Counted from the first letter of the stretch, positions 4,138 to 61,826 are shown. The stretch is 64,000 nucleotides of DNA from Patescibacteria group bacterium (GCA_022563395.1 JADFNM010000001.1:334342-398341); one strand, 5' to 3'. The notes: generated from the sequence alone by a model not told the origin. A program made the numbers and translations.

Positions 4138-4181
4138 GCTTAAATTTCATTTAGTTATCCACACCTAAACGAGATTTAAGC
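4138..4181. repeat. REP-like hairpin, variant with 10-nt loop 'TTATCCACAC'
   Basis: 'gcttaaatttcatttag' + 'ttatccacac' + 'ctaaacgagatttaagc'. The arms are inverted copies (2 mismatches). The same unit recurs at 18722-18765 and 22804-22836. Confidence 0.8.
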
Positions 4182-4186
4182 AGAGG

Positions 4187-8490: not shown

Positions 8491-8574
8491 GTAAAATTTA
8501 CTGTGTGATTGTTTCTGTATTATACCAAGAATCCCTTATCTATCCAAACTAACATTGTGGAAATCCGTCTTCAT

Positions 8575-8601
8575 AAAAAATCGCCTCCTTGGCGATTTTT
8601 T
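8575..8601 (-). terminator. Intrinsic (bidirectional-looking) terminator downstream of rpoC
   Basis: 'aaaaaa-tcgcc-tcctt-ggcga-tttttt'. A 7-bp stem AATCGCC/GGCGATT with a 5-nt loop, flanked by an A-run and a T-run. Confidence 0.6.
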
Positions 8602-8623
8602 GTTTTGAGATAAACGCATATCT

Positions 8624-8641
8624 CCTAAATCTCGTTTAAGC
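8624..8641. repeat. Solo REP-like unit
   Basis: 'cctaaatctcgtttaagc'. A single unit, itself a 6-7-bp mini-hairpin, lying between the terminator and the rpoC stop. Confidence 0.6.
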
Positions 8642-8664
8642 ATGATTGATTCTATTGAATAATG

Positions 8665-11600
8665 CTATTTTTTCTTAAATCCGGTGCCGGCTGGAATGAG
8701 TTTTCCAATAATTACATTTTCCTTTAAGCCTCGCAGCCGGTCCTCCTTCCCTTCTAAAGCTGCCTTAATTAAAACGCGGGAGGTCTCCTGAAAGGAAGCC
8801 GAAGACAGAAAACTGTCTGTGGTTAGGGCAACTTTGGAAATGCCCAGGAGAAGCTGCGCGGCGCTCGCTCTTTTCTTTGTGAGTTTCTTCACCCTGGCAT
8901 TCTCTTCTAAGAACACGGTCCGTTCTATTACCTCCCCCTCCGTGAATTTGGTGTCTCCTACATTTTTGATGCGAACCCGAGAAAACATCTGACGTGCAAT
9001 GATCTCAATGTGTTTGTCATGAATAGAAGCACCCTGGGAGGTATAAATGCCCTGCACCTCTCTTACGATATAATTTGCAGTATTTTCTTTCCCGGTTAAG
9101 GAGAATACCTCTTGTAAGTCTAGGTGTCCTTCGCAGAGCTGCTGGCCTTGTGTGATCAGGTCTCCAACTTTCACCCACAAAGCTCTCTTTGCTGGAATCT
9201 GGTATTCCATAACTCCCGAATCCTGAGATTTGGAACCTGAAACCTGCATGCCAGATTTTTTGGTTTCATGTTTCAGGTTACGCGTTTTATGTTGCTTGTC
9301 GTTAATCACTTTAATCCTTACTATTCCTTCTGGAGTCACTTCTTGTACCTGCCCGTCCACTTCAGAGACTACTGCCTTCCCCGAAGGAGTCCTTCCTTCA
9401 AAGATTTCCTCCACACGGGGAAGACCCTGGGTAATGTCACCTCCTCCAGCAACTCCTCCTGTGTGAAAGGTTCTCATGGTAAGCTGTGTTCCGGGTTCTC
9501 CAATGGATTGCGCGGCCACAATGCCGACTGCAGCTCCAAGTTCAACCTCCTGGTTTCTTCCCAGGTCCCACCCATAGCACTTTTGACATACTCCACGCAC
9601 TGCCCTGCAAGACAGGGGGGAGCGAACCTGAACTTCAGATACCTTCTCATCTTCCCCTATTTGTTGCGCCATATCCCAATCAATGTATTGCCCCTTTTTA
9701 ACAATCCCCTTCAGGTCTGTCAAAAACATCCTGCCAGCAAGTTTTAAAGCAATATTCTGCCCAAGTTCTTCTGCTGCAGCTTTTGTAATGGTAATGCCCT
9801 CGGTATCCTTACAGTCGCTTAAGGTCACCAACACATCATGAGCAACATCAATCAAGCGCCGAGTCAAATATCCTGCAGTAGATGTTCTCAAGGCGGTGTC
9901 TGCGGTTCCCTTTCTTGCACCATGCGTAGAAATAAAGTATTCCAAAACGTTAAACCCTTCCTTAAAGGAACTGATCACGGGCAACTCAATGATACGCCCG
10001 GCCGGGTTAATCACCAACCCTTTCATTCCTGCCATCTGAACTGGTTGTGACCAAGACCCCCTTGCCCCAGAGTCAATAATGGAGAACACCGAGCCGCCTT
10101 CTGGCAACGCTTTTGGCACGAGTTTCTCTATGCTGGACTTTACCCGCTGCCAGATTTCAATAACCTTGGCAGATCTCTCCTCTTTAGAAAGGAATCCTTT
10201 TGCAAAGTGGGAGTCAATGACCTCAACCTCTTTTCTTGCGACGCTAAGCAGTTGTTTTTTCTCTGGCGGCACCAAAAGGTCATCCATACCCCAGGTAACG
10301 CCGGACTTGGTTGCATATTTAAATCCCAGCTCCTTTATCTTGTCCAACATCCCGGGAGCTTCTTTGGCAGGATAGTGCTTGATGATGTCTGCTACCAGGC
10401 GTTCCATTTTCTTTGCCGTAATCTGCTCGTTCATAAAGGGGAACCCCAAAGGCAGGGACTCATTGAAAATAATCCGTCCCGCTGTGGTTTCAACAAGAGA
10501 AATTGCATCGCCTCCCCAGTTTTCTGAGAGCCGGACCTTTATCATCTCTCGCAATTTAACAACCCCGGCTTCCATGGCAAGCATTGCTTCTTCGGGAAAC
10601 GCAAAATTCTTTTGCTGCCTTACTTGTCCTGAGCTTGTTGGAGGATCCACGCCTGTAAGATAATAACACCCAAGCACCATGTCCTGCCTTGGGCTTGTCA
10701 CCGGAATGCCTGTGGCGGGCTTGAGCAGATTCCTGTGAGACAGCATAAGGTCTCGTGCCTCTTCTTGCGCTTCCTTGGAAAGCGGGACGTGAACTGCCAT
10801 CTGGTCTCCATCAAAGTCAGCATTGTAGGCAGAACACACTAAGGGATGTAGGCGGATTGCCGCCCCCTCCACAAGCAGGGGGTAAAAAGCCTGAATTCCC
10901 AAACGGTGAAGCGTGGGCGCGCGGTTTAAAAGCACAAGTTTTTCTGAAACAACCTCTTCCAAGATCGCCCATATGTCATCGGTTTCTTGCTCAATCAAAC
11001 GGTTTGCCCCTCGGACATTAAAAGCAAACTCCCGTTCCAAGATCTTGTGAATGACAAAGGGTTTAAAAAGTTCCAAGGCCATACGCTTTGGCAACCCTAC
11101 GTTATCAAGATTCATGGTGGGGCCAACTACAATTACCGATCTCCCAGAGTAATCCACGCGCTTTCCCAAAAGGTTCTGACGAAACCTTCCCTGCTTTCCC
11201 TTGAGCATATCAGCTAAGGATTTCAACAGGCGTTTTCCCCCGGTGGTAGCCTGGGTCATTTGCCCCTTTCTCATGGAGTTGTCAATTAAGGCGTCCACTG
11301 CTTCTTGCAGCATTCGCTTTTCGTTGCGCACAATAACGTCTGGGGCTCCAATATCCAAAAGATACTTTAACCGGTTGTTTCGGTTAATAACCCTGCGGTA
11401 CAGGTCATTTAAGTCAGAGGAAGCATACCTTCCACCATCCAACTGCACCATGGGACGAAGATCAGGGGGCAGAATAGGCAGGTGCGTTAAAAACATCCAC
11501 TCGGGTCGAATAGATGACTCAATCATGCCTTGGATGAATCGAAGGCGAAGCAAAAGCTTTCGCTTAGCTTGTATACTTGCCTTTTCTAGGTTCTTTTTTA

Positions 11601-12288
11601 CCTGGCTGAGCAACTTTTTCAAATCCACCTCCTCAAAGATCTTACGCAAAGCTTCCCCTCCAGTTCCCGCCTCAAAGACCTGCCCATATTTTAAAGAAAG
11701 GTTCTGGTATTCTAATTCAGAAAGAATTTTCATTGGCTGAAGTCCTCGAAGCTCCTCTTTTGCCCTATCCCGCGCTCCCTTTAGGTCCTGCTTTTCTTTT
11801 TCTGTCTGTCCTTTTACCTTTTGTTTGAATTCCGCGTCAATCTCATCAGCAGCTTTTTGTTTCGTTTCTTCATGAACATTGGTAACAATGTAGGAGGCAA
11901 AATAGATGACTCGCTCTAAAGACGAGGCCGGAATGTCCAAAACCAAGCCCATGCGGGACGGCAGTCCCCGCAAGAACCAAATATGAGAACAGGGTACGGC
12001 AAGCTTGATGTGCCCCATACGCTCTCGCCGAACCGAGGATTTGGTTACCTCAACCCCACACCGGTCGCACACCACGCCTTTGTATCGGATCTTTCGATAT
12101 TTCCCACAGTAACATTCATAGTCCTTTTCCGGGCCAAAGATGCGCTCGTCAAACAACCCATCCTTTTCCGCCTTCTGGGTTCGGTAATTGATGGTTTCGG
12201 GCTTCGTAACCTCCCCAAAAGACCAGGAAAGAATATTATCGGGAGAGGCCAGCTTAATCCGAATCGATTCTAAATCAGTTACCCTCAT
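8665..12288 (-). CDS. rpoC: DNA-directed RNA polymerase subunit beta'
   Basis: 1207 aa. Zn finger '[23 protein letters not shown]', catalytic 'NADFDGDQM', and '[10 protein letters not shown]'. Confidence 0.95.
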
Positions 12289-15200
12289 GGTTCTCTTGGT
12301 TATTTCTTGCTTCTCTTTTTTGCTGGGTTTCCTTTAGCTCAATGTTTAGACCTAAAGATCTCAGCTCAGCGACCAACAAGCTAAAGGAAGCAGGGAGGTT
12401 TGGGGTCTGAATGGGACTTCCCCGCAAGATACTCTCATAGGTTGAAGCTCTTCCCGGCACATCGTCTGACTTGATGGTAAGCATTTCTTGCAAGGTGTGT
12501 GAGGCTCCATATCCTTCCAAGGCCCATACCTCCATTTCCCCGAACCGCTGCCCTCCAAATTGTGCCTTTCCTCCCAGGGGCTGCTGAGTAATCAAAGAAT
12601 AGGGACCAATGGAACGCATGTGAATCTTGTCTTCCACCATGTGAATTAACTTCATCATGTAAATGTACCCAACCGTAATCTTTTGGGGGAAGGACTCCCC
12701 GTCTCGCCCGTCAAACAAGGTCACCTTTCCATCTTCCGGGAGTCCTTGCGTCTTAAGCTCACTTTTAATGTCCTCTTCGGTGGCCCCTGCCAGCCCAGGA
12801 GTTATAGCATAGTATCCGCCTTCTTTTGCTGCCCAGCCAAGGTGGGTTTCCAGAATCTGGCCAATGTTCATTCGAGATGCCACGCCAAGAGGGTTTAAAA
12901 CAATATCCACGGGGGTTCCATCTTCCATGAATGGCATATCCTCTTCTGGCAACACAAAGGAAATAACTCCTTTGTTTCCGTGACGTCCTGCCAGTTTGTC
13001 TCCTGGCTGCACCTTTCTTAACTCCGCTACCTCAACATGGATACGCTTTATAATGCCGGGTTCCAGTTTGTGACCCTGGGCCCTTTCAAATATCTTTACA
13101 TTAACCACTTTTCCTCGTTTTCCATGCGGCATTAACAAAGAACTATCTTTCACGTCACGGGCCTTTTCCCCAAAGATGGCGCGCAACAATCGCTCTTCTG
13201 CGGTAAGGTCAGCTTCTCCCTTCGGAGAGATTTTCCCTACCAAAATGTCGTTGGGGCCTACTTCGGCTCCAATGCGAATCACTCCTTCCTCGTCCAAATC
13301 TTTGAGTTTCTCCTCTCCAACATTGGGAATGTCTGAAGTGATGACTTCGGGCCCCAGCTTGGTTTCCCTGATGTCAGCTACAAAATCCTCAATGTGAATT
13401 GAGGTGAACCGGTCGTCTCGTGCGAGCCGCTCTGAGATGATAATGGCATCCTCGTAGTTCCCTCCATGCCAAGAAATAAAGGCAACCAACAGGTTGGTTC
13501 CCAAGGCCAGACGCCCTTGGTCAATGGCGCCTCCGTCTGCAATAACCTGTCCCTTCTTTACTTTGTCTCCAATGTTTACAATAGGACGCTGATGAAAAGA
13601 GGTGTACTGGTTAGTCCTGACAAAATTCTTTAAGTTATGAGTTGTAACACGACCATTTTTTGGTTTTAAAGCTATGTGTTTTGCATCAACTTCAACGACC
13701 GTGCCATCCTCTTTTGCCATTATGGCAAGCCCTGAATCCTCTGCCACCTTTTCTTCAAGGCCGGTTCCCACCAAAGGGCTTTGAGGACGAAGCAGAGGAA
13801 CTGCCTGGCGTTGCATGTTGGAACCCATGAGGGCACGGTTTGCATCATCATTTCTCAAAAAAGGAATTAAGCCAGTTGCGATAGAAATGGACTGCTCTGC
13901 AGCAACATCAAAAAGGGTGACGGTATCTCTTGCGGCAATGCTGGGCTCCCCCTTTACCCTGGCCTCCACCTTACTTGGGATAATCTTACCATTTTTGTCC
14001 AAAGGAGTTCCCGCATGCGCTATAATCTCCTGCTCTTCTTCAAAAGCATTGAGGTATCTTACATCTTTTGTTACCCTTCCTTTCTCTACTAAAAAGTACG
14101 GGGTTTCCAAGAACCCATAGGAGTTGAGGCGAGCATAGCTTGCCAGATGCCCCACCAAACCAATGTTGGGACCTTCTGGAGTTTGAATGGGGCAAATTCT
14201 TCCATAGTGGGAGGGCTGTACATCTCTGACCTCAAATCCAGCCCTCTCTCTTGTTAATCCGCCAGGCCCGGTTGCTGACACCCTTCTCTTGTGTTCCAGC
14301 TCCGCCAAGGGATTTTCGTTGTCCATGAACTGGGTAATCTGAGAAGAAGTGAAAAACTCCTTGATTATAGCCATGACCGGCCTGGGGTTCACCAACTGGA
14401 CAGGGGTCAGCGTGGCAGAATCCAAGGTAGACATCCGGTCTTTTATAATTCGTTCCATTCTCATAAATCCAACCCGCAACCTATTCTGCAAAAACTCAGC
14501 AAAGGTCCTCACCCTTCTGTTCCCCAGGTGGTCAATCTGATCTGGCTGTACCCCTGGTGTATTATTGAGCCGGATGATTTCGCGGAGCACTTCTATCACA
14601 TCTTCTAACTTCAAAACGCGATCTTCAATGGTAATCTCCTCTCCTGAAACCTGGAGCTTGGAACGTGAAACACTTTTTGTGTTTTGGGTTTCATGTCTCA
14701 CGCTTTGTGTTTTATGCTTCAACGCTGGCAGACGCTGCAAAGTTTTCCATCTTCCAACCCGGGAAAGATCATATCTCTCAAAATTAAAGAACATATTCCA
14801 GATGAGCTCTTTTGCCGTGTCTGGAGTCACGTAGTCACCGGGGCGCAACCTTCGGTAGATTTCCACTAAGGCCTCGCCCTGTCCTTTGCTGGTATCTTTT
14901 TTCAGAGTTTCCGTAATGAAACTCACCTCTCCCGTGTCCACGTCTTGAAATGCACTCCGTATGGCCTCTTCGGTCTCCAAGCCAAATGCCTTCAAAAGCG
15001 TGGTAACAGGCGCCTTTCTCTTTCTATCAATGCGAACACCAATAAAGCCTGATTTTTCGGTCTCAAACTCCAACCAAGCACCACGATTGGGGATAATTTT
15101 TGCACCAAAGATTTTTCTTGTTGCAGTAACGTTCTGCCCGGTAAAGAAAGCTCCAGGGGAGCGGATGAGTTGCGAAATGGCAACCCGCTCCACGCCATTG

Positions 15201-15568
15201 ATAATGAACGTGCCGCGTTCTGTCATTAAAGGAAAGTCAGCTAAAAAAACCTCCTGCTCTTTTTGTTCTTTGGTTTTCAGATTCACCAGGCGAACCTTTA
15301 CTCGCAAGGAAGCCTCAAAGGAATCATCATTTTCTTTTGCATCTAGGTCTGAGGCGTAGTTTGGCTCTCCTATCTTGAAATCTAAAAACCATAGCTCAAA
15401 CTCTTTTTTCGTGTGGTCACGAATGGGAGAGATTTCTTGGAGCAGTGCTTTAAAATCTGCAGCCCAAAACTGGTTCCAGCTGTCGTGCTGTACCTGCAAA
15501 AGATAGGGCAGTGGGAGGTGAACGCCGGTCTTTGAGAAGTTTTTGAAAGAAGATTGCAGAGCGGGCAT
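12275..15568 (-). CDS. rpoB: DNA-directed RNA polymerase subunit beta
   Basis: '[10 protein letters not shown]', '[13 protein letters not shown]', '[13 protein letters not shown]', '[14 protein letters not shown]'. ATG at 15568; the track start at 15577 is TTG. Overlaps the rpoC start by 14 nt. Confidence 0.95.
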
Positions 15569-15680
15569 GAAAAACAAAGGTCCCTTTTCCCATGCAAAAA
15601 AGGGCCTTGCTATAGCTTACTGCTTATATAAAGAAAGGATTCAAGGTTGAGATATTTTTGAAAATATTTAACTAGAAAAT

Positions 15681-15709
15681 ATACTACAAGGTATTGCCAA
15701 AAATGTCAA
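15681..15709 (-). promoter_or_regulatory. Candidate sigma70-type promoter for rpoBC
   Basis: On the minus strand: TTGACA (plus 15704-15709), a 17-nt spacer, then TAGTAT (plus 15681-15686). Lies ~113 nt upstream of the rpoB ATG. Confidence 0.4.
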
Positions 15710-15777
15710 CCCTTCCTGTCAAGGGGGTCTTTTCCCCAGGTTTTCAACAGGGACTATTGCTCCCCTTCAGGGATTGT

Positions 15778-18102
15778 TTATTCTTGGATTTCAGGCGGGG
15801 TTTCTTGGATGGGGGGCTCTGAAACCTGAATGCCTTCAAGAGCCGGAAGCCCCTGCTCCAGGTTTGCCAAAATCTTCTTTATCTCCTCATTGCTCGGGTT
15901 CAATCTTTCCACCTCAGAAAACTCCAGCTTTGCTGCACCTTTATCCCCTTTTGCATCATGCACCAGTCCCAAAATGTATCGTGCGTTGGAGTAATCAGGA
16001 TTAATCACAATTGCTCGCTCCAGTTCAGATTGGGCTTTGTCCAATTCTTTGCGCTGCCAGTATAAGACTCCCAGCTGAAAGGCCAAACCAATGTCGTTGG
16101 GCGAGGCAATGAGTTTTGTTTCCTCCAGCTTTGCCACGGCTTCGTCCGACTTTCCCTGCTGGTCATACACTACGGCAGTCAAAAAGTGGGCAGGGGCATA
16201 GTCATTCTTTAACTCCAAGGCCTTTGTAAGATTCTCCAAGGCTTCCTCTAGTACTTTTGCTCTTGTCGCCTCAGCTTCTCCAAGAGCAAGGGTTTGGGCC
16301 TGTACAACCTTAGAACGCGCCAACTCAGTCCATGGGAAAGGAGAGGTTGGTTCCAGTTCTGCTGCTTTAAGATAGGATTCCTGTGCCAAGGCTTCTGCTC
16401 CCTGAATACCAATAAGGTTCCGGTACACAAATCCCTGTACGTTCCAGTTTGCAACGTTTGCTGGAGCTACCTTAGTCGCAGCCCGCGCAGCTGCTACCGC
16501 ATTGGATACTGCAACCTGCGTTTGTTGCTGGCGTTCTTCTTGCGTAAGCTCCTGATTGACTGCAATCTGGTTCACCCGTGTAAGGTAGAGCTGGGAAAGA
16601 TCTCGCCAGTACAAATCCACCGCAGGATTAAGGTTTGCTGCCGACAGAATCTTGCTAATGGCGCCGTCCAGGTCTCCTGTTACAGATGCTCTTGCACCCT
16701 TGAGGTACTGAGCTTCTGCCGCATACTTTTGTCCTCCGATAAACAAAAGCCCGAGACCAAAGATTAGAATAATCAAGAATACAAAAGAGGAGCCCAGGGC
16801 AAGGAATGGATAGGTGGTAACGCTAAAATGCAAAACTTTTCCCGCTCCCGTAAAGGCGAGGGCGCCAAGCAAGGTCCAGAATAGAAACCACAGCATAAAA
16901 GAAGAAGGATAGAAGAATGTAGAAACAATAAGGGCAACCAAAGAAGCAAAGGTTCCCAGACCCAGCATCCACACAAAGTTTTCTTTTTCAAAACGCACTA
17001 ATGCTTTTGCTCCCATAACTTTTATCGTTCCAAACAGCGCCAATAGTAAAAGTAAGCCAACGGCTCCCTTGGTTACCAGCCAGTTTTGAACCTCAGAGGC
17101 ACCCGAAGCAAATCGCGTTCCAAAGAACACGGTTTGGTTCAATTCTGCTGGCCGGTACTGAGTATACTGCAAGACAAAGGTTCCGGGTCCCCCACCAAAG
17201 AGCGCTCGCTGCTGCAGCGTGCTTTTTGCAACGTTCCAGGTTGCCCCCTGGTTTAGCGAAACCTCAAGCGGCAAGGTTCTTGGGGCTAGAGGAAGCGCCA
17301 CCTGAAATACCATAAAGAACACGGCCACAATAATTAAGGCCATGGGCAAGGAAACCCACCCAAACTCAGCTTTCTTTCGCATGTTCCACATGCCAAAGGC
17401 TAAAAGCACCAAGAGGCCGGCTGTCAGGACTACCCAGGCTGTCTGAAAGTTTAGCAACACAAGCGAGACAAACAGTACGACTGCCACTGCCCAAAGAATC
17501 CAGCGCAAGAGCATGTTTGAAGCAAAGGCCAGGACCAGGGCCAAAGGCAAGAGTACTGCTGAAAAAATCGCAACCCCATTCATACTCCCCAAGGTGTTAA
17601 AGGTTGCAATCTTTGCAAAGTCAAAGGGAAGAAGATACAGCTGGTAGGCCTGCAGCAAGGTATATAAGACTGCAATGCCAGAAGAAACCAGTAGAGTCAA
17701 CAGCAAACGAAAGAGATGCTTTGGATCTTCAACTACCTGAAAAACCAGAAAAGAGAACAAAGCAAAGACCGCAAAGGTCAAGAAGTTATCGCTTAAGTTC
17801 AAAGGCCAGCCCCAGAAAGAAGCTGCGACCCATCGGGACAGCAAAGTGGAAATGCCAATGCCGAGAAGCAACAGGGCAACGGGGATATACAGAAAGGATA
17901 CCCTCAGACGAATCTCTCCTTGGCTCACTACCTTAGCTAACCAGGCAACCAAACCAACAAATACCAGCATCACCAGCAAAGCCTGCTTTTGATACACAAG
18001 AACATTTTGAGTCAGGGGCAAAAACCACAAAGGCAGCAAGAACACCGTTGCATACAAACTTCCTTTTGCGACCTTATCTAATATTGAAATGGACTGCATC
18101 AT
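15778..18102 (-). CDS. Polytopic membrane protein, O-antigen-ligase-like, with C-terminal TPR repeats
   Basis: 774 aa. At least 12 hydrophobic segments over ~450 aa, then TPR-like repeats (e.g. 'DIGLAFQLGVLYWQRKELDKAQSELERAIVINPDYSNARYILGLVHDAKGDK'). The ligase assignment rests on architecture only. Confidence 0.5.
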   Translation of the reverse strand: MMQSISILDKVAKGSLYATVFLLPLWFLPLTQNVLVYQKQALLVMLVFVGLVAWLAKVVSQGEIRLRVSFLYIPVALLLLGIGISTLLSRWVAASFWGWPLNLSDNFLTFAVFALFSFLVFQVVEDPKHLFRLLLTLLVSSGIAVLYTLLQAYQLYLLPFDFAKIATFNTLGSMNGVAIFSAVLLPLALVLAFASNMLLRWILWAVAVVLFVSLVLLNFQTAWVVLTAGLLVLLAFGMWNMRKKAEFGWVSLPMALIIVAVFFMVFQVALPLAPRTLPLEVSLNQGATWNVAKSTLQQRALFGGGPGTFVLQYTQYRPAELNQTVFFGTRFASGASEVQNWLVTKGAVGLLLLLALFGTIKVMGAKALVRFEKENFVWMLGLGTFASLVALIVSTFFYPSSFMLWFLFWTLLGALAFTGAGKVLHFSVTTYPFLALGSSFVFLIILIFGLGLLFIGGQKYAAEAQYLKGARASVTGDLDGAISKILSAANLNPAVDLYWRDLSQLYLTRVNQIAVNQELTQEERQQQTQVAVSNAVAAARAATKVAPANVANWNVQGFVYRNLIGIQGAEALAQESYLKAAELEPTSPFPWTELARSKVVQAQTLALGEAEATRAKVLEEALENLTKALELKNDYAPAHFLTAVVYDQQGKSDEAVAKLEETKLIASPNDIGLAFQLGVLYWQRKELDKAQSELERAIVINPDYSNARYILGLVHDAKGDKGAAKLEFSEVERLNPSNEEIKKILANLEQGLPALEGIQVSEPPIQETPPEIQE

Positions 18103-18721: not shown

Positions 18722-18765
18722 GTCTTAATCTCGTTTAGTTATCCACACCTAAACGAGATTTAAGC
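18722..18765. repeat. REP-like hairpin, 'TTATCCACAC'-loop variant
   Basis: 'cttaatctcgtttag' + 'ttatccacac' + 'ctaaacgagatttaagc'. Located between the yraN start and the comM stop. Confidence 0.8.
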
Positions 18766-21997: not shown

Positions 21998-22717
21998 TTA
22001 CTCTAAAAACAGCTCATTCATCGCTCCCAGCCCCTTCTTTCCAAGAAGAATATCGCGCGCAAAGTCACGATATTGCTTTGGGCTGGAAAACAAATCTTCT
22101 GCAATTCCTTTCTCCACAATAATAGAATCCCGCTTCCCCAAGTATTCTTGGTGAGTACTCCAGGGATATTCTTTCGCAAATTTCAATATCCCCTCTACAT
22201 CCTGGGTACCCTGTTCTTTCAACATCGGCTCAATCTCCTGCCCGGGATTAATTACATTTATATATACAAGCAAATACTGAAGCTGCGTGTCTCTGTCTAC
22301 CATCACTGCCTTAAACACACCTTGGAACAATGAACCTACTCGTTCGTATTTTGTATTGAAATATTTTGTATATCCCACTCCAAGTTTCTGCATAAATTTT
22401 GAAATGCCGTCTTCTTGTATCTCCTCTAAAAGAAGGTGGAAATGGTTTGGCTTTAAGCAATCGGCCATAATACGCACTAGGGGTCTTCGTTCTACCCCCT
22501 CTTGTTTCATGTAGTCGCGTAAAATACCAAAGTGCATTTTGCCTTTTTCTTGCTCGAGTCGATACAGCAAATTGAGCGAACCGCCCTCATCGTTAAAAAG
22601 ATAGAGTCCCTGAAGAAATCTCTAGCGATCTCCATCGCTCAGAAAGATTTCACGCTTTTCAACGCCTCTATTGTATACATGATAAATTTTCCCTTTTTCA
22701 AATTTTACTCTTGCCAT
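21998..22717 (-). pseudogene. IS200/RAYT-like Y1 (HUH) transposase gene interrupted by one in-frame TAG
   Basis: My translation from the ATG at 22717 gives 'MARVKFEKGKIYHVYNRGVEKREIFLSDGDR*RFLQGLYLFNDEGGSLNLLYRLEQEKGKMHFG...'. This continues in frame into track ORF 21998..22570. HUH motif 'NHFHLLL'. Tyr motif 'GYTKYFNTKYERVGSLFQGVFKA'. The TAG is at 22622-22624. Confidence 0.7.
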
Positions 22718-28123: not shown

Positions 28124-28537
28124 CTACCTTGCTATTCTCACCGCGCGCCTCGCCTCCTTGTAGCTTCCCGTTGCCTTCACGCAGTAGTTGAAGCCGAGAG
28201 CGCCAGGACACCCTCCTGTCCCGGCGTCCTCTGCCAAAAGCACGAAACTTGCCCCGTTCGCCAAGATAAGCTCCCCGGGCGGGATGTTCGAAAACTCCGT
28301 GGTGAGACAGGGTGCGTGCTCCTCCTCGTTCGCGCAAAAGGTATTATCAATAAACAGGGCGCGCTCCACACCGGCTTCCGTTGCGTAAAAGGCAAGGACC
28401 GCATGCCCCATGCCCCGCAGGATGCCGAGCTGGGAGAACAGAAGGGCACTCGTGCCAAGGGCAATGCCCAAGAGGGTAGTCATAATCATAAAAGCAATAT
28501 ACAGAGATACCCCTTTTTGGCTTTGGAAATTGGTCAT
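28124..28537 (-). CDS. PilX-N-domain-like pilus/pseudopilus protein
   Basis: 137 aa. 'QKGVSLYIAFMIMTTLLGIALGTSALL' then 'AFYATEAGVERAL', which is the PilX N-terminal pattern. Last gene of the pilin-like operon. Confidence 0.65.
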   Translation of the reverse strand: MTNFQSQKGVSLYIAFMIMTTLLGIALGTSALLFSQLGILRGMGHAVLAFYATEAGVERALFIDNTFCANEEEHAPCLTTEFSNIPPGELILANGASFVLLAEDAGTGGCPGALGFNYCVKATGSYKEARRAVRIAR

Positions 28538-28552
28538 TGAAAATTGAAAATT

Positions 28553-29095
28553 CTAATTAGGGACATCTACTTTTCTCTGGGATACCGTTGTATGCAGCTG
28601 AATGCTCGGCTTGGATTCCGGCTTTGGGCCCTGACCCTGAATCACCATGCCGAAGGTCACCCGGGGCTGAAGGTCGTCGGTCTGGTTCTCACCCAAAAGC
28701 ACGAACTGTAAAGATACGACCTCAAGGTTGTCTGAGGTAAGAAACTCGGCTGGGGCTGGGGGAATGGATTCTTGGATCCTTGTTCCCTGCAGCAGGAACT
28801 CATGACATTGGCCGGCGTTGTTCAGGAACTTCACACCCTGCCCGCCCAGGGTGAGCTCATAGTTGAGCCCGCTCGTGGAAAGGCAGGTTGGGCCCAGGTC
28901 CTTTTGCGCCTGGCGCAGGACTCTCGTCATGTATTCTGCAAGAAAGGAAGTCTGGTCGAGAAGCTCTTCGGTCGCAAGGGAGTGGCGCTGGGCTATGATG
29001 CCCGTGAGTAGAAGGTTTGTGGCTCCCCCGATGACCAAAGAAAAAGCAAGGAGCGAAACCAAGAGTTCTGGAATGGTAAATCCTCGTTCTTTCAT
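28553..29095 (-). CDS. Prepilin-type N-terminal motif protein (PilW/GspJ-position)
   Basis: 'MKERG|FTIPELLVSLLAFSLVIGG'. Gly-Phe cleavage site, Glu at +5, and a hydrophobic helix. Confidence 0.75.
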   Translation of the reverse strand: MKERGFTIPELLVSLLAFSLVIGGATNLLLTGIIAQRHSLATEELLDQTSFLAEYMTRVLRQAQKDLGPTCLSTSGLNYELTLGGQGVKFLNNAGQCHEFLLQGTRIQESIPPAPAEFLTSDNLEVVSLQFVLLGENQTDDLQPRVTFGMVIQGQGPKPESKPSIQLHTTVSQRKVDVPN

Positions 29096-35134: not shown

Positions 35135-38100
35135 TTACTGAGGGGGCGTATAATCCACCCCAAATTGGAAATAGTTAATGTCATCATGAGTATCAGGAAA
35201 ATCAATATAGCTTTGCTCGTCACTAGGGGCAATACGTATAGCGACCTCCTCGTTCGCCGCAGCATCAACAGCGTAGGCCTCAAGGGTACAGTTGTTGTTC
35301 TCTTCGGTTCTGCAATCCCCCGTAGGGCCCACGGTGAAGGTGAAGATTTTGGTGGTGATGGTGCCGCTGCAGGCAACCTCTTGTTCTTGTGTGCCGAAAA
35401 TTTGATCGGTGATACGCAACCTGCAGAGAGAAAGCCCACCAGCATCTTTGTATTTCACGCTTACAGAATAGATGCGGTTTGTTCCGTCGTCTTTTGCCCG
35501 GATAAAGGCGCATATCTGTCCAGCAGTACAACTCCCCAGAGGAGCTATGCTTCCATCTCGGTACCCGATTGCCTGCCCTGAGTCAGGAGAAGAAATGCTC
35601 ATAATCTTTGCTTCACTGGGGGCGACACTGTCAATGCAGGTATTCAGCGGGAAGTTTGCTGTTTGGCCGAGGTTGCATGTTTGAGTCGTGGACACCGCAT
35701 CGGTGTTCGCACTACCGCTTCCCGGGGTGCAGTGAGCATCTGTAATACATTCCACAAGGTTATGGTTAGTCCCCCATAAACCCTCCACTCTTCCGTTTGC
35801 TGCGCTGTCAGAATACAAAGCGTCCACAGAGTAGAAAACATCGCTCGAGAGCACGGGGTGAGTATCTATATACTGATCCTCCCCCACAGCAGAGAGGCCT
35901 AAAATCGAATCCGCTTCAACAAATCTGCAGTATCTTTCGCTTGGCGGAATAAGGAGGTCGTACCCCCATCTCATATCCTCCGTGCTATCCTGAGATACAA
36001 ATGAAGAGGTAGTCCAGAAATTCCATTGCGTTGGGGAGGGATCCTCCCAATCTGTCCACCATTTAAGAGCAGGGCCGCAATCTCCCGCACCAGGTGCATC
36101 CTCATCCATTTCAATACTGGAAGAGAATGCCACACCCCCTCCGCGGGGTATTTGCGGGGTACTGCTTGTACGCTCGTAAGAAAGCGAGCCACCGCCTGTA
36201 ACATTAATTCCTTTATGAGTAATGAGAAGAGGACAGGTTTTTGGTGCTCCGGCAGTTATTATCGACACGTTAAACGTATCCTCTTTGGGGCTTGAGGTCT
36301 TCTGGCAAGTACTAACACTTACCCCCACGATGTCGGACTGCTCCCCGTCGTCGTCTGTCCCATTTAGAGGACTGCTCAAATCAATCCTTGCCCAGAAATC
36401 AACCACCCCACCGCCAAACCCGATTCCCGTTGTAAATCCGATCTGGCAGTAGCCGGAACTGATGACGCAGGAACCAAACGACCCGGGCAAGTTGAATGTG
36501 TTCCAGAAGAAAACCGTCCTCCCCTCGCAAGCACCCGCACAGTACGCTTTTAACGTTAACGTCTCACCCTCTACAATAGAGGTCGGTTCAACCACAAGCC
36601 GAAGCTTTGGCGTAAACATCACCCTGGCATTGCCCGTGTTGTCATAGTACTCAAAGAGGTAGTTGAACGAGCCAACCCCAAGATTGATGCTCCCCGTTGT
36701 TGTGCGGTAACTGCCGTCTCCCCACTGGTCTGCAATTGTGACACCGCCTACGGTTAAGCGCGCCCCGTCGTCAGAACCAATCATGAATTCGTAAACGCCA
36801 GTCGTGCCCACGGTAAAGCTCCTGCTGGACTTAAAACCAACCAAATCGGATGGGCCGCCGCTGAAAGGAACTCCGGCACCCCAGTTCGTATCAAAACGCC
36901 CAGAGCTTTCACTCGACGTCCCAAGGTAATTGCAGTCAGTAAACGTTGGGCTTACGCCAGATACCGAATACCAGAGACGCTGCCAACTCGTAGAGGGATA
37001 GGTGAGAGCGGGTACCGCTATGTTCAAAGCATTGTCTGCCGTCTGACTCGCCTGATAGCTCGTATCACCCTTAAACCGCACATAAAAGCTGTTGGTGCCA
37101 AGGTAGGTTGAGCAGGACGGTGTCCAGACATACAGCCTGGTACCAGTCGCATCAGTCTGGGAGCCCGCCTCATCTGCGCCCAGCCACGTTGCCCATGTGC
37201 CGTCCGATTTCCTGAGTTCAAGCGGCTTTCCCGCAAGCCCTCCTGCGTTTCCATCTAAAAGGCGGCCTCCAACCGATACATTCTCTCCCGGAACAAGGAG
37301 GGTTTTGCTAAAAATGCAGTTGCCATAAACACATTCAACCGAGGTCGAGTCGTTTACGGTTAATGTATCAAATAGTTCATTGTTGGTTTCGTTCGACTCC
37401 GTCACGTTGCAAAGGTCGTCTACGTACATCCATATCGTCTTGCTTCCGCCGGTCGCAAACCCTCCGCTCTTCACGAGAACAAATGGTTTGGTTGCGCCTC
37501 CCGCAATGGTACCCAAGGTCTGGGCCGCAAACCAATCCGCGCTACCACACAAGGGCGGATCCGAATTATACCCCGTAATCCACCCGCCAGAAGACTCCAG
37601 GGCCCCCTGGTTTTTCACTACCACAGCGTAGCTAATATCCTCTCCGGGCAGAGGGCTTGGAGGAGTTGGAATAATGGACTGGACAATGAGGTCGGGCGGA
37701 CCTTGCCACGTAACCAAGGTGCCGGCAGAAATTGATTTAATAATGGTTGCAGCAGAATTCTCTATTTTCGCAGTGTAGCTGATGGCCGTATCGCTGTTGC
37801 TGACATCAAGCGTGCATTCTGTTCCCGAGCCGCAAGTTTTCAGTTGGGTGCTCCCATCATAGATGCGAATGAAGTAGGGGCTGAAACCAATGTTAAAGTT
37901 GCTCGTGGCAGTGAGGGTAACCGAGGTGCCGTTGGCAACCGGACCGCCCGCATCATCAGAGATGCCGGCAATCCAATCATCACCGGTTCCAGAAACAGTC
38001 CTGTTGAGCGGACCACCTTCCCCGGAGAACTCGGCCGTGCCGCTGCTGAATATCGCGGTGGTGGGCAAAAACCGTATTGTTACGTTCTGGGTCGCTGCCC

Positions 38101-40387
38101 CGCTCAGGTTATAAGTGCCGCATCCGCTGAAACAAGAAAAGGGAGCTGCCAGGCCGGAAACAATACCTGTAACCGTGAGACCCCCAGAGTTTGAAACCGT
38201 GAAGTCTTGGTTTTGCCAGCTACCAATGCCTATGGTCCCGAAGCTCAAAGACGTTGGGGTCACGGCAATCTGGGCATTCGGCTGCCACGTGATTGCCCAA
38301 GGACCAGAACTTGATTTAATAACGCTTCCAGTAGAATTCTCAATTCTCGTAGTGTAGGTCTTGGTTGTGTCGGTAAAACCTCCCACATTGACCAAGCATG
38401 TCGTTCCCGAAGCGCAAGATACCAGGAAGCTGGGCCATACGTTTGAGCCTTCGTAGATGCGAATCCAGTAGGGGCTGGTATTAACGGCGGCGTTGCTCGT
38501 ACCAGTGATGGTGACGACGGTTCCATTGAGACACGTGGCGCAAGGCGCAGCATTGAGGCCAGCAACCCAGTCTACCCCAACCCCAGAAAGCGATACGCTA
38601 TCTCCCCCTGCACCAGAGAAGTTGGCAATATCACTAAAATTCCCTGCGCTCGTGGGTGCAAAGCGCAAATTGACGTTAATACTACTACCTGCCCCAACGC
38701 TATAGTTGGTACAGTTGCTGGTACAAGAAAAGGGAGCTGCCAGGCCAGAGACGGAGCCCGAAAGCGTGCTGCCTCCGGCGTTTGACACCGTGAAGCCCAC
38801 GGTTAAACCGTCATCAACCCCAAAGGTCTCATAGTTCTTGGAGCTTGGGGTCACGGAAATCTGGGCAGGAGGATTACTAACGGTTACCGTATTTGAGGTG
38901 AACCCAGTCGTATTGTTTGACCCGTCAAACACAAAAATAGTATAAGTGTAGTCTCCAGCAGTTGATTCTGAGGTGGTGAAACTATGGTTGCAAGAGGAAG
39001 CTCCTCCGCAACTCCAAAATTCACCGGTTTTCGTGAAATTCAGCCAATCAACACCGGAATGAGAATCTGCACCGGTTGTGGGAATGGTTATCGTATCTCC
39101 TGTAAACACGCTTGTCGGGCTTGCGCTCACACTCCCTGTTGGAGAGGTATAGTCAATGGAAAAAGAGCGCGTGGAAGCCCCTCCGAATCCAAAGGAAGTG
39201 CCGCCTCCGGCCTGTTGGCTGCCGGCATCCACGGTTACCGAACATGTATTGCTTCCTTGCGTGCTGCATGAACCTCCCGAGCCTGCGGACACCGTGTCGC
39301 TGCCGTTGCATGTGCGCACCCCAAGGTCCGGGGAGGTCTGCCAGCAGGTGGTAAGCTCGGCACCTGCGGGAACAGAGTCCGAAACAGAAATCGAGAAAGA
39401 AGAATTAAACCAAGATCCTGAGGACGGAGACGTTATTGTAGAACTGGATTGGCATTCGCTGGTGTGTTGGAACCCTGCCGCACAGGAAGCGGCCAGGAAT
39501 ACCGCACCGTACTTGCCTTTAGAAGCGCTCTTAAAGTAAGGCCTCAGGATTGCAGGCGTATCCTCGTCCAGCTTAAACTCCCCCTCCTGCAAGGAAGAAA
39601 CAATGTTGAAGTTGTGCCTGATTCCACGCTGGATGGTTTCTAGTCCTTTTGCTGCGTGCTCCGGCTTGAGGCTGGGGTAATACTGCTGGAACATCGCAAT
39701 ATCCATGCCCTCCGCATACGCAAGGGCCTTTGTAACGAACCCTTCGGCCTCCTCAAAACGGTCCAACTCAATATACACGGCGGCCAGCCCCTGGTTGGCA
39801 AGGAAGCTAGAGGGGCGCTTCTCTGAAAGCTCTTGGAGAATCTCTTCTGCATCTTCAAACCTGTTTTGCAGGAACATCACGTAGGCCAGGTCATTGAGCC
39901 CCGCCTCACTGTTTGGATAAAAGCCAAGGAACGAACGAAAGTCCTGCTCAGCAAGTTTGAGCTCCTCCAAAAAGGCGTATGTAAGGCCTCTCATGTAAAA
40001 GGAGCTGGCGCTGTCTTTATGCAGGGCAATCTCTTGGTTGAATTCTCCAAGCGCCCTCTTAAGCTCATTGCCAGAGAAATAAATGCGCCCGAGCTGGTGG
40101 TGCGCCCACTGAACCGTTGGGTTCATATCCAGCGCTTGGAGGTACGCCTGCTCTGCGTTTTCAAAATCATAGCTCTCAAAGAACTCGTTCGCCGTCTCAA
40201 ACTGTTCTTGGGCCAAGGACCCTTGCACATCTGCCGCTGTCAGCACAGCTCCCGCAGTAAGCGCAAAGAAAACTGCAAGGCCGCCGGCAACCACCGTAAA
40301 AATCCCCACGTGTTTCCGTCCTAACGTTGGCATATTCTCGGCCGGAGTAATGGCGGAATTCTGTTGTGTTTTACTCGCTTTATTCAT
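35135..40387 (-). CDS. Giant membrane-anchored TPR / Ig-like / CARDB / PA14 surface protein
   Basis: ATG at 40387; the track start at 40393 is TTG. N-terminal TM 'VGIFTVVAGGLAVFFALTAGAVL'. TPR block (~residues 60-260). Two ~190-aa tandem modules ('...FTVSN(A/S)GG...GLAAPFSC...IRIY(E/D)GS...IENS...'). CARDB-like 'PDLIVQSIIPTPPSPLPGEDISYAVVVKNQG...ESNETNNE'. PA14-like 'GVYEFMIGSDDGARLTVGGVTIADQWGDG...FEYYDNTGNARV'. Confidence 0.8.
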   Translation of the reverse strand: MNKASKTQQNSAITPAENMPTLGRKHVGIFTVVAGGLAVFFALTAGAVLTAADVQGSLAQEQFETANEFFESYDFENAEQAYLQALDMNPTVQWAHHQLGRIYFSGNELKRALGEFNQEIALHKDSASSFYMRGLTYAFLEELKLAEQDFRSFLGFYPNSEAGLNDLAYVMFLQNRFEDAEEILQELSEKRPSSFLANQGLAAVYIELDRFEEAEGFVTKALAYAEGMDIAMFQQYYPSLKPEHAAKGLETIQRGIRHNFNIVSSLQEGEFKLDEDTPAILRPYFKSASKGKYGAVFLAASCAAGFQHTSECQSSSTITSPSSGSWFNSSFSISVSDSVPAGAELTTCWQTSPDLGVRTCNGSDTVSAGSGGSCSTQGSNTCSVTVDAGSQQAGGGTSFGFGGASTRSFSIDYTSPTGSVSASPTSVFTGDTITIPTTGADSHSGVDWLNFTKTGEFWSCGGASSCNHSFTTSESTAGDYTYTIFVFDGSNNTTGFTSNTVTVSNPPAQISVTPSSKNYETFGVDDGLTVGFTVSNAGGSTLSGSVSGLAAPFSCTSNCTNYSVGAGSSINVNLRFAPTSAGNFSDIANFSGAGGDSVSLSGVGVDWVAGLNAAPCATCLNGTVVTITGTSNAAVNTSPYWIRIYEGSNVWPSFLVSCASGTTCLVNVGGFTDTTKTYTTRIENSTGSVIKSSSGPWAITWQPNAQIAVTPTSLSFGTIGIGSWQNQDFTVSNSGGLTVTGIVSGLAAPFSCFSGCGTYNLSGAATQNVTIRFLPTTAIFSSGTAEFSGEGGPLNRTVSGTGDDWIAGISDDAGGPVANGTSVTLTATSNFNIGFSPYFIRIYDGSTQLKTCGSGTECTLDVSNSDTAISYTAKIENSAATIIKSISAGTLVTWQGPPDLIVQSIIPTPPSPLPGEDISYAVVVKNQGALESSGGWITGYNSDPPLCGSADWFAAQTLGTIAGGATKPFVLVKSGGFATGGSKTIWMYVDDLCNVTESNETNNELFDTLTVNDSTSVECVYGNCIFSKTLLVPGENVSVGGRLLDGNAGGLAGKPLELRKSDGTWATWLGADEAGSQTDATGTRLYVWTPSCSTYLGTNSFYVRFKGDTSYQASQTADNALNIAVPALTYPSTSWQRLWYSVSGVSPTFTDCNYLGTSSESSGRFDTNWGAGVPFSGGPSDLVGFKSSRSFTVGTTGVYEFMIGSDDGARLTVGGVTIADQWGDGSYRTTTGSINLGVGSFNYLFEYYDNTGNARVMFTPKLRLVVEPTSIVEGETLTLKAYCAGACEGRTVFFWNTFNLPGSFGSCVISSGYCQIGFTTGIGFGGGVVDFWARIDLSSPLNGTDDDGEQSDIVGVSVSTCQKTSSPKEDTFNVSIITAGAPKTCPLLITHKGINVTGGGSLSYERTSSTPQIPRGGGVAFSSSIEMDEDAPGAGDCGPALKWWTDWEDPSPTQWNFWTTSSFVSQDSTEDMRWGYDLLIPPSERYCRFVEADSILGLSAVGEDQYIDTHPVLSSDVFYSVDALYSDSAANGRVEGLWGTNHNLVECITDAHCTPGSGSANTDAVSTTQTCNLGQTANFPLNTCIDSVAPSEAKIMSISSPDSGQAIGYRDGSIAPLGSCTAGQICAFIRAKDDGTNRIYSVSVKYKDAGGLSLCRLRITDQIFGTQEQEVACSGTITTKIFTFTVGPTGDCRTEENNNCTLEAYAVDAAANEEVAIRIAPSDEQSYIDFPDTHDDINYFQFGVDYTPPQ

Positions 40388-40399
40388 AGACAATCAGAC

Positions 40400-40990
40400 C
40401 TAACCAGGCAAGAACTGAGGATAGAAGCCGCTGTAGGGAGAGAAGCCGCTGTAGGGAGAGAACTGAGGGTAGAACTGAGGGTAGAAGCCGCTGTAGGGAG
40501 AGAACTGAGGGTAGAACTGAGGATAGAAGCCGCTGTAGGGAGAGAACTGGGGGTAGAACTGCGGGTAGAACTGCGGGTAGAAGCCGGTGTAGTAGAGAGA
40601 CTGGGCATAGGGAGAGAACTGAGGGTAGAACTGCGGGTAGAAGCCGGTGTAGTAGAGAGACTGGGCATAGGGAGAGAACTGAGGGTAGAACTGCGGGTAG
40701 AAGCCGATGTAGGGCAAGAACTGAGGGTAGAACTGAGGGTAGAACTGCGGGTAGAAGCCGATGTAGGGCAAGAACTGAGGGTAGAACTGAGGGTAGAACT
40801 GAGGGTAGAACTGCGGGTAGAAGCCGGTGTAGTAGAGAGACTGGGCATAGTAGAGAGACTGGGCATAGTAGAGAGACTGGGCATAGGGAATGTCTGCTTG
40901 AACTACACCGAAAAACCCGAAAAAGAAAAGAGAGCAAAGTATTCCTACTCCTACCAAACACAATGCAAGCTTCCTTTTGCGACTAATCAT
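40400..40990 (-). CDS. Secreted low-complexity protein built from 19 FYPQ repeats
   Basis: Signal peptide 'MISRKRKLALCLVGVGILCSLFFFGFFGVVQA'. The ATG (40988-40990) overlaps the upstream TGA as ATGA. The TAG stop lies 12 nt before the next ATG. The mature part uses only D, I, P, Y, A, Q, S, L, T, G and F. Confidence 0.7.
   Translation of the reverse strand: MISRKRKLALCLVGVGILCSLFFFGFFGVVQADIPYAQSLYYAQSLYYAQSLYYTGFYPQFYPQFYPQFYPQFLPYIGFYPQFYPQFYPQFLPYIGFYPQFYPQFSPYAQSLYYTGFYPQFYPQFSPYAQSLYYTGFYPQFYPQFYPQFSPYSGFYPQFYPQFSPYSGFYPQFYPQFSPYSGFSPYSGFYPQFLPG
40409..40888. repeat. Tandem 12-nt-period DNA repeat with higher-order units
   Basis: 'gaactg(a/c/g)gggta' is iterated ~20 times. It is interspersed with 'gaagccg(c/g/a)tgtag...' blocks, and ~60-nt higher-order units are repeated exactly. 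All six frames are open across it. Confidence 0.9.
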
Positions 40991-56001: not shown

Positions 56002-56038
56002 GTAATGACAGAAATGTAACTGGCTACGCCGTGGACAT

Positions 56039-57481: not shown

Positions 57482-57499
57482 GGGGAGGGTATGATTTTA

Positions 57500-58936: not shown

Positions 58937-58987
58937 AAAAAATAGGGGTGTAATTTATGATGAATCAGGCAGGGGCTGCTTCTTTAC

Positions 58988-61791: not shown

Positions 61792-61826
61792 AGAAAGTTG
61801 TCAAGCATTAGAATACCACACAAAAC

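Follow-up and report, generated by a model that had tools for sequence, protein, structure and literature searches.

Heptanucleotide arrays in RNA polymerase surface loops as the probable basis of an rpoB/rpoC likeness in a Patescibacteria group bacterium

Why should rpoB and rpoC, two unrelated essential genes that encode the RNA polymerase (RNAP) subunits beta and beta', carry what looks like the same in-frame segment of about 75 nucleotides (nt)? The question arises in a 64,000-nt stretch of DNA from a Patescibacteria group bacterium (GCA_022563395.1, JADFNM010000001.1:334342-398341), which was analyzed over its full length and is called the window below. A first-pass annotation of the window had described a homologous 75-nt segment in both genes and had offered as explanations a short mobile or recombining insertion tolerated in surface loops or a peptide module, for example a docking site, acquired by both subunits. 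The sequences, coordinates, strand, frame and peptides that it quoted were all exact. The reading we favour, with moderate confidence, is that both segments are decayed heptanucleotide simple-sequence arrays lying in frame in surface loops, with a likely shared origin within this genome. The host genes and the two copies are as follows.

8665-12288, minus strand, rpoC (RNA polymerase beta', 1207 amino acids (aa), from open reading frame (ORF) and translation), host of copy 1
12275-15568, minus strand, rpoB (RNA polymerase beta; gene calls on public contigs give 1097 aa), host of copy 2
9214-9291, minus strand, copy 1, 78 nt or 26 codons of rpoC, in a loop of the beta' jaw
14642-14716, minus strand, copy 2, 75 nt or 25 codons of rpoB, in a loop of the beta lobe

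The rpoC assignment was confirmed by the Pfam domains RNA_pol_Rpb1_1-5 on the identical protein in public contigs and by matches to beta' chains in the PDB, and that of rpoB, whose mechanical ORF extends over 12275-15577, by RNA_pol_Rpb2 domains and PDB beta matches.

The likeness and its seven-nucleotide period

When aligned in frame the two copies are identical at 53 of 75 nucleotides, which reproduces the earlier hand count; 36 of 39 positions agree in the 13 codons for identical residues and 17 of 36 in the remaining codons, and peptide identity is 50%. The same pair is the top local alignment between the two genes, with 37.9 bits over 79 nt at 68% identity and, for the gene pair, E 5e-5; the runner-up reaches 28.4 bits. 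None of 300 whole-gene codon shuffles reached 37.9 bits (mean 25.0, maximum 31.6), and of 20,000 shuffles of the rpoB segment by itself, by mononucleotide or by codon, none attained the real local score of 22 (maxima 17 and 19). A chance or compositional likeness between two A-rich low-complexity linkers, suggested by the base content of the segments (37% and 41% A) and by their location in variable loops rich in K, S and T, is effectively refuted by these composition- and codon-preserving controls. An identical codon is used at 10 of the 13 identical residues compared with 5.0 expected (P = 0.004); judged from the sequence, the likeness looks to be one of DNA rather than of peptide.

The earlier description missed that both segments are repetitive head to tail with a period of 7 nt. 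Self-identity at lag 7 was 0.52 for the rpoC copy and 0.56 for the rpoB copy, with values of 0.13-0.38 at other lags, and none of 10,000 shuffles matched it. Each copy has five or six C[A/C]TGAAA units in forward orientation, then a short centre, then four TTTCAGG units in inverted orientation, and reads as an imperfect palindrome. The arrays were scored against a 35-nt template, (C[A/C]TGAAA)5, for which shuffle maxima were 22-25.

9257-9291, minus strand, copy 1 forward array CATAAAA CGCGTAA CCTGAAA CATGAAA CCAAAAA, 29/35 against the template
9243-9256, minus strand, copy 1 centre ATCTGGCATGCAGG, containing the small palindrome GCATGC, by direct reading
9215-9242, minus strand, copy 1 inverted array TTTCAGG TTCCAAA TCTCAGG ATTCGGG, its plus strand 27/35 against the forward-unit template
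14675-14716, minus strand, copy 2 forward array CATAAAA CACAAAG CGTGAGA CATGAAA CCCAAAA CACAAAA, 28/35 against the template
14671-14674, minus strand, copy 2 centre AGTG
14643-14670, minus strand, copy 2 inverted array TTTCACG TTCCAAG CTCCAGG TTTCAGG, its plus strand 25/35 against the template

In full, the rpoC copy is parsed as five forward units, the centre, four inverted units and a final A, and the rpoB copy as six forward units, AGTG, four inverted units and a final A. Sliding one copy against the other by +7, +14 and +21 nt gave identities of 0.63-0.92, while in register the value was 0.69-0.70. As shifts by whole units do as well as the register itself, the two copies share a unit and a layout and are not demonstrably one 75-nt block. 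Of the claim of a homologous segment, the real, in-frame likeness stands and the single intact block was an overstatement; block homology beyond unit-level likeness was rejected on the register shifts, its support from shared deviations being modest (P = 0.022).

A forward array followed by an inverted array of its complement explains the hairpin potential that had been pointed out before, and folding bore this out. The hairpin arms lie at 9234-9246 and 9267-9279 in copy 1 (92% complementary) and at 14655-14671 and 14688-14704 in copy 2, so that the inverted arms measure 13-17 nt, with folding z-scores of -2.4 to -3.8 for both copies. A scan of window positions 8500-15800 with Rfam covariance models returned no match at E <= 1, and a known RNA family was dropped as a candidate. 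A conserved RNA-hairpin function is unlikely because the corresponding loops of relatives often hold a forward array alone.

Translation of the ideal arrays accounts for the peptides. A (CATGAAA)n array encodes HET*NMK, (CCTGAAA)n encodes PET*NLK and (TTTCAGG)n encodes FQVSGFR. In-frame TGA slots fall in units 2 and 5 only and are occupied by CGT and AAA in rpoC and by CAA and CAA in rpoB; the peptides of the window agree with the ideal translation and the substitutions sit exactly at these slots. The two peptides are alike because the same unit is translated in the same phase. With a 7-nt unit only steps of 21 nt keep the frame, and the rpoB array has a 21-nt (7-codon) self-similarity of 15/21 nt, which fits in-frame growth by three units at a time. 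Both peptides are rich in K, S, T, Q and H, and most likely such stretches are disordered filler that is tolerated, not a module under selection.

The two loops and heptamer arrays in relatives

Relatives were sought in a 5.8-billion-protein search and a GTDB genome scan. The best protein and genome matches were Patescibacteria/Parcubacteria, the commonest name being 'Candidatus Wildermuthbacteria', and the top matches reached at most 87% identity in the rpoB region and 80% in the rpoC region, the segment being absent from all of them. At least six contigs, drawn from several independent assemblies, encode the exact rpoC protein. Both segments were unchanged on four of these, which were assembled independently from metagenomes and are 99.95-99.99% identical to the window, and an assembly artefact was rejected for that reason.

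Both segments occupy sites that are hypervariable in the lineage, in agreement with the earlier placement in variable regions, and the flanking motifs were also as first stated. The rpoB site lies between QRLPxL and (E/D)(I/V)xxxDRVL, where relatives have about 3-25 extra residues, and the rpoC site between (V/I)(K/R)IK and xEYxIP, with 0 to about 35 extra residues; at both sites these are stretches rich in K, S, T and Q. The closest relatives, 77-87% identical in these regions, have no HKT..HET.. sequence in either gene (rpoB: P0001, P0002, P0006 and L001-L004; rpoC: P0121 and P0122, where P and L denote proteins and loci of our comparison set), and the segment is not conserved in the lineage.

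Mapping onto solved structures placed the rpoB insert in a gap between two matched stretches of proteobacterial beta chains (8 residues in 7xya, 414-423, where the window has 36; the match to E. coli beta resumes at residue 418), a site in the beta lobe. The rpoC insert falls between residues 1283 and 1301 of T. thermophilus beta', 17 residues there and 43 here, in the beta' jaw, the domain names being those established for RNAP. Lobe and jaw line or flank the downstream-DNA channel of RNAP. In AlphaFold models of fragments, built on 56-sequence alignments, the rpoC insert (fragment residues 171-196) had a predicted local distance difference test score (pLDDT) of about 53 between confident strands E160-165 and E197-201, and the rpoB insert (fragment residues 151-175) had 71, 49 and 65 per 10-residue block with flanks of at least 90. 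Because pLDDT is about 50-70 between well-predicted flanks, both inserts are predicted to be flexible surface loops.

Arrays of this kind proved to be frequent in the lineage. In 0.99 Mb from 68 related Parcubacteria loci, 7 nt was the commonest tandem-repeat period (202 rows in total); among arrays of at least 3.5 copies there were 121 of period 7, 38 of period 6 and 16 of period 9, while codon-block shuffled controls of the same DNA contained no array of at least 3.5 copies. The arrays thus exceed chance and are enriched for period 7. Of 99 arrays, 53 lay outside ORFs of at least 120 aa, though about 91% of that DNA is inside such ORFs. Among the relatives, heptamer arrays occur in at least four hypervariable beta and beta' loops. 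Those at the two sites that bear the copies in the window include the following.

rpoB loop, L006 and L027, (CCGAAAT)x4, encoding SEIRNPKSE
rpoB loop, L067, (CAAAAAT)x5
rpoB loop, L023, (TTCAAAA)x5 or more
rpoB loop, L022, (CGACAAA)x4
rpoC loop, L003, (ACAATTG)x4 plus (GTCAAAA)x5

Two further loops of relatives also contained in-frame arrays, one N-terminal in rpoC (about residues 158-180) and the other a second loop of rpoB (about residues 600-690, HITIK...TYNLR), at these positions.

L006, 11465-11495
L067, 7120-7151
L023, 2516-2552
L029, 6915-6951
L030, 7074-7107
L038, 5892-5922
L068, 6985-7011 and 8863-8923
L026, 13371-13407

Other large proteins of relatives (L059, L061 and L052) contain heptamer arrays as well. 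Many relatives have an rpoB-rpoC spacer of 100-200 nt filled with inverted heptamer arrays, in which a forward and an inverted array form hairpins. The window has no such spacer because rpoB overlaps the start of rpoC by 14 nt (12275-12288), and the C-terminal tail of its rpoB may be the read-through remnant of a comparable heptamer-array spacer.

Inverted heptamer arrays are widespread well beyond this Parcubacteria lineage. A metagenome scan with the pattern TGAAACNTGAAAC-N5-35-GTTTCANGTTYCA matched at least 120 DNA stretches, of which 80 loci (L073-L152; GC content 0.33-0.73) were examined. Most of them consisted of (GTGAAAC)2-5, a spacer of 10-25 nt and (GTTTCAC)2-5; 55 of the 62 evaluable cases were outside ORFs, and the 80 included no contig of the source species. 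This widespread inverted (GTGAAAC)n hairpin class was not among the results of our literature searches on heptamer repeats, which also found no paper describing heptamer repeats in Patescibacteria.

Origin of the two arrays

Under the explanation that we favour, arrays would arise through replication slippage of 7-nt units and their inverted partners through template switching. To survive in an essential gene an array would need a flexible, tolerant loop, a length divisible by 3 and the removal of stops. The hypervariable RNAP loops of the Wildermuthbacteria-like family would have been filled repeatedly with such DNA, and in the window one array would have been copied to the other loop or both would derive from one array family. 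Orthologous loops of relatives vary widely in length and unit. According to two papers which draw on Mrazek et al. 2007 (PMC4679880, PMC4692102), in most prokaryotic genomes no class of long simple sequence is as abundant as the heptanucleotide repeats, for which slippage of the polymerase, favoured at about 7 nt, has been proposed as the cause. Heptamer repeats inside ORFs, including an RNAP beta'-like ORF (PMC4679880), and inverted heptamer-repeat pairs (PMC4692102) have been described.

On balance we favour a shared DNA origin of the two arrays within this genome, either by copying of one loop into the other or by descent of both from the same array family or a third source. When 1,849 loop pairs were scored across 43 genomes (off-diagonal mean 8.5, maximum 21), the rpoB loop and the rpoC loop of the window came out highest, at 23, and such likeness within a genome was found in no other of the 43, so that it was discarded as a family trait. 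The unit CATGAAA/CCTGAAA is rare among relatives, with exact matches at 2 of 76 sites. The copies agree in orientation, phase, unit count, start CATAAAAC and end GGA, and they share deviations from the ideal unit which no stop codon forces (G>A in unit 1; TTCCAAR as inverted unit 2); identical in-register deviations number 6 compared with 3.1 under permutation of unit order (P = 0.022). Elsewhere, too, distant sites of a genome shared one unit, in 14 of 84 within-locus pairs as against 97 of 2,766 between-locus pairs, an example being rpoB loops 1 and 2 of L067. The alternative is independent convergence, in which the arrays grew separately in each loop, out of identical or similar heptamer seeds and with DNA transfer playing no part, and the likeness amounts to the same unit in the same phase under common demands for stop avoidance and hydrophilicity. 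We consider this unlikely, with the rarity of the unit, the agreement in layout, the non-forced deviations and the rank of the pair speaking against it.

Several observations nevertheless weigh against our explanation, some of them by favouring convergence. Shifting the copies by 7, 14 or 21 nt leaves their identity as high as it is in register. In-frame TGA forces the deviations at units 2 and 5, and some of the signal from shared deviations is produced by stop avoidance at the same phases. An excess of identical codons would likewise result from two same-phase arrays of one unit. Unrelated arrays of different genomes (L067 rpoB loop and L003 rpoC loop) reach a loop-pair score of 21, and 21% of the site pairs between loci have units that agree to within one mismatch, which means that independent arrays can look almost as similar. 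Inverted (TGAAACN)n arrays are, moreover, very common in metagenomes. The arrays are degenerate and Tandem Repeats Finder calls neither of them. A perfect forward array has a stop every 21 nt in every frame, so that intact insertion of a perfect array is impossible and stepwise growth or a source that had already decayed is required. The window holds few other heptamer arrays and none of the C[A/C]TGAAA unit elsewhere, and thus the source family is not seen within the 64 kb; the only other strongly 7-nt-periodic stretch, at 28515-28556, is composed of ATTGAAA units (lag-7 identity 0.69) at the junction of two minus-strand ORFs. Lastly, no copy-number variation was found in the four assemblies, in which both segments are identical, and ongoing slippage is not evident. 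Such invariance is expected of decayed arrays and speaks against current activity, not against this origin.

The in-frame insertion into both genes of a discrete mobile palindromic element, of the kind of a Rickettsia palindromic element (RPE), a MITE (miniature inverted-repeat transposable element) or a repetitive extragenic palindromic (REP) sequence, was also considered. An IS200-like Y1 transposase encoded about 10 kb away might have mobilised it.

21998-22570, minus strand, 190-aa ORF, Pfam Y1_Tnp (IS200-like transposase), 26.8 bits with a cutoff of 23

The palindromic, hairpin-capable architecture, the in-frame residence in essential genes, both typical of RPE- or MITE-like elements, and the presence of this gene speak for a mobile element. 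So does a GC-rich palindrome, CCTGCCT(N5)GGCAGGCAGG, which is flanked by A-rich heptamers and lies in frame in the L027 rpoB loop (10492-10512); there CCTGCCTGACCGGCAGGCAGG encodes LPDRQAG. A near-identical palindrome is present at an unrelated site (L010, 1371-1391) and the similar peptide LPAGRQG in an rpoC loop of another genome (protein P0131, residues 361-367), which hints at a dispersed palindromic element able to sit in frame in RNAP loops. However, there are only two copies in the 64 kb. Copies were counted with blastn (word size 7), an nhmmer two-copy profile, a 35-nt template scan, a search for 21-mer arrays allowing up to 3 mismatches and tblastn with each peptide as query, and besides the two known sites no third copy stood out in the window; a match of CAGGTTTCAG at 15819-15834, in the 3' end of the upstream tetratricopeptide repeat (TPR) gene, was at chance level (E 0.36). 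Neither target-site duplications nor terminal inverted repeats were found in the flanks GACAAGCAA...GTTATGGAA and GCGTTGAAG...GAGGAGATT, the inverted symmetry of the copies being internal, between the arrays. Their interior is a tandem array and not unique sequence, and the closest relatives have different array units at the same sites, suggesting local turnover. Expansion of simple sequence is a better fit to an array of 7-nt units than is a discrete transposable unit, and we regard the mobile element as improbable. Of the first-pass suggestion of a mobile insertion tolerated in surface loops, tolerance in flexible, hypervariable loops holds and mobility is unproven, in view of the two copies and the absence of a target-site duplication.

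REP sequences and bacterial interspersed mosaic elements (BIME) are short extragenic palindromes in many copies, typically flanking a gene for a REP-associated tyrosine transposase (RAYT). The Y1_Tnp ORF could be a RAYT-like gene. Both copies are intragenic, arrays of the rpoB/rpoC unit are absent from the vicinity of the Y1_Tnp gene, and a link of the copies to this transposase was rejected. An intergenic palindrome of about 45 nt, CTTAAATCTCGTTTAG-TTATCCACAC-CTAAACGAGATTTAAG, does occur twice in the window (4139-4186 and 18722-18765); its loop bears a consensus DnaA box, TTATCCACA, and possible identities are a terminator, a REP-like element or a hairpin that titrates DnaA.

That both subunits gained the same flexible basic peptide under selection, for a common partner or for downstream DNA, appears more doubtful still. 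In its favour are the 50% identity of the peptides, their richness in K, S, T, Q and H, their predicted flexibility, their being fixed and identical in four samples and, going by established knowledge of RNAP channel geometry, the position of both sites on domains lining the downstream-DNA channel. The peptide is, on the other hand, missing from the closest relatives in both genes, the likeness within a genome recurs in none of the other genomes compared, and the sequence is fully predicted by the DNA repeat. Codon identity goes beyond what selection on the peptide alone would give, though same-unit, same-phase arrays produce it too. The docking-site proposal of the first-pass annotation is not supported by these observations, the peptide being an in-frame reading of heptamer arrays.

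A more far-reaching version of the array explanation, which we consider rather improbable, is that heptamer-array palindromes are an actively generated or mobile class of DNA in Patescibacteria that has repeatedly rebuilt at least four RNAP surface loops, with sequence moved between the beta-lobe and beta'-jaw loops, 5.4 kb apart, by gene conversion or template switching. If this were true, the RNAP would have a matched pair of flexible basic arms flanking the downstream-DNA channel, which might be functional.

Comparison with known repeats and further features of the window

The segments are a known kind of simple-sequence DNA in an unusual setting, and a new example rather than a new peptide module. 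The short tandemly repeated repetitive (STRR) heptamers of Calothrix and Anabaena, reportedly described by Mazel and colleagues in 1990, are similar as dispersed tandem heptanucleotide arrays which can often form stem-loops; they differ in their units (CCCCAGT and others), their extragenic sites and their phylum. STRR sequences are also mentioned in PMC4692102. RPE, which Ogata and colleagues are said to have introduced in 2000 as elements of 100-150 nt with unique sequence and dozens of dispersed copies, resemble the segments as palindromic repeat DNA lying in frame in genes, tolerated at the surface and encoding peptide without evident function. The window has in their place two arrays of 75-78 nt made from a 7-nt unit, with no evidence of transposition, and the comparison is one of architecture, not of sequence. 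Tandem repeats of Borg elements, which according to Schoelmerich and colleagues (2023) reportedly create intrinsically disordered protein regions, are likewise in-gene DNA repeats that yield new low-complexity, disordered segments. Their units are perfect and multiples of 3 nt, whereas the unit here is 7 nt long and degenerate. Lineage-specific insertions in beta and beta' are said to have been catalogued by Lane and Darst in 2010. Such insertions, including BEAN/HABAS (PMC11515920), share with the segments their permissive positions; they are folded domains conserved within lineages, while the inserts of the window have 25-26 residues, a pLDDT of about 50-70 and no counterpart in relatives 77-87% identical.

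The closest match is with the heptanucleotide long simple-sequence repeats, of which published examples are the GGGAATC type of Xanthomonas and Nostoc (PMC4692102) and TAACTGA of Beggiatoaceae and cyanobacteria (PMC4679880). Points in common are the 7-nt unit, the excess of period 7 in the lineage, the mostly intergenic sites, the recurrence of a unit at several places in a genome, occasional inverted pairs (PMC4692102) and copies in ORFs, an RNAP beta'-like ORF among them (PMC4679880). In contrast to the published repeats, the arrays of the window are decayed, fixed and in frame inside the essential beta and beta' genes, they combine a forward and an inverted array in one loop, and their unit, CCTGAAA/CATGAAA, and their reduced Patescibacteria host are different.

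An odd shared module of two unrelated essential genes is in this way accounted for by a simple process at the level of DNA. In a reduced Patescibacteria genome, the most conserved enzyme has loops made of 7-nt arrays and not of codon-based repeats, from which it follows that new disordered protein segments can be seeded by repeats with a unit length not divisible by three, with stops edited at predictable phases. Such segments call for caution, as they can mimic homology, motif sharing or horizontal transfer in marker-gene alignments of rpoB and rpoC. The wide occurrence of inverted (GTGAAAC)n arrays in metagenomes merits a survey of its own.

Two further features of the window were noted. Four tandem paralogous genes of about 460-480 aa lie on the minus strand at 56038-61796, with 60-68% nucleotide identity. 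A complex tandem repeat at 40406-40889, with nested periods of 12, 18, 42 and 54 nt and up to 28 copies, adjoins a 1752-aa ORF at 35135-40393.

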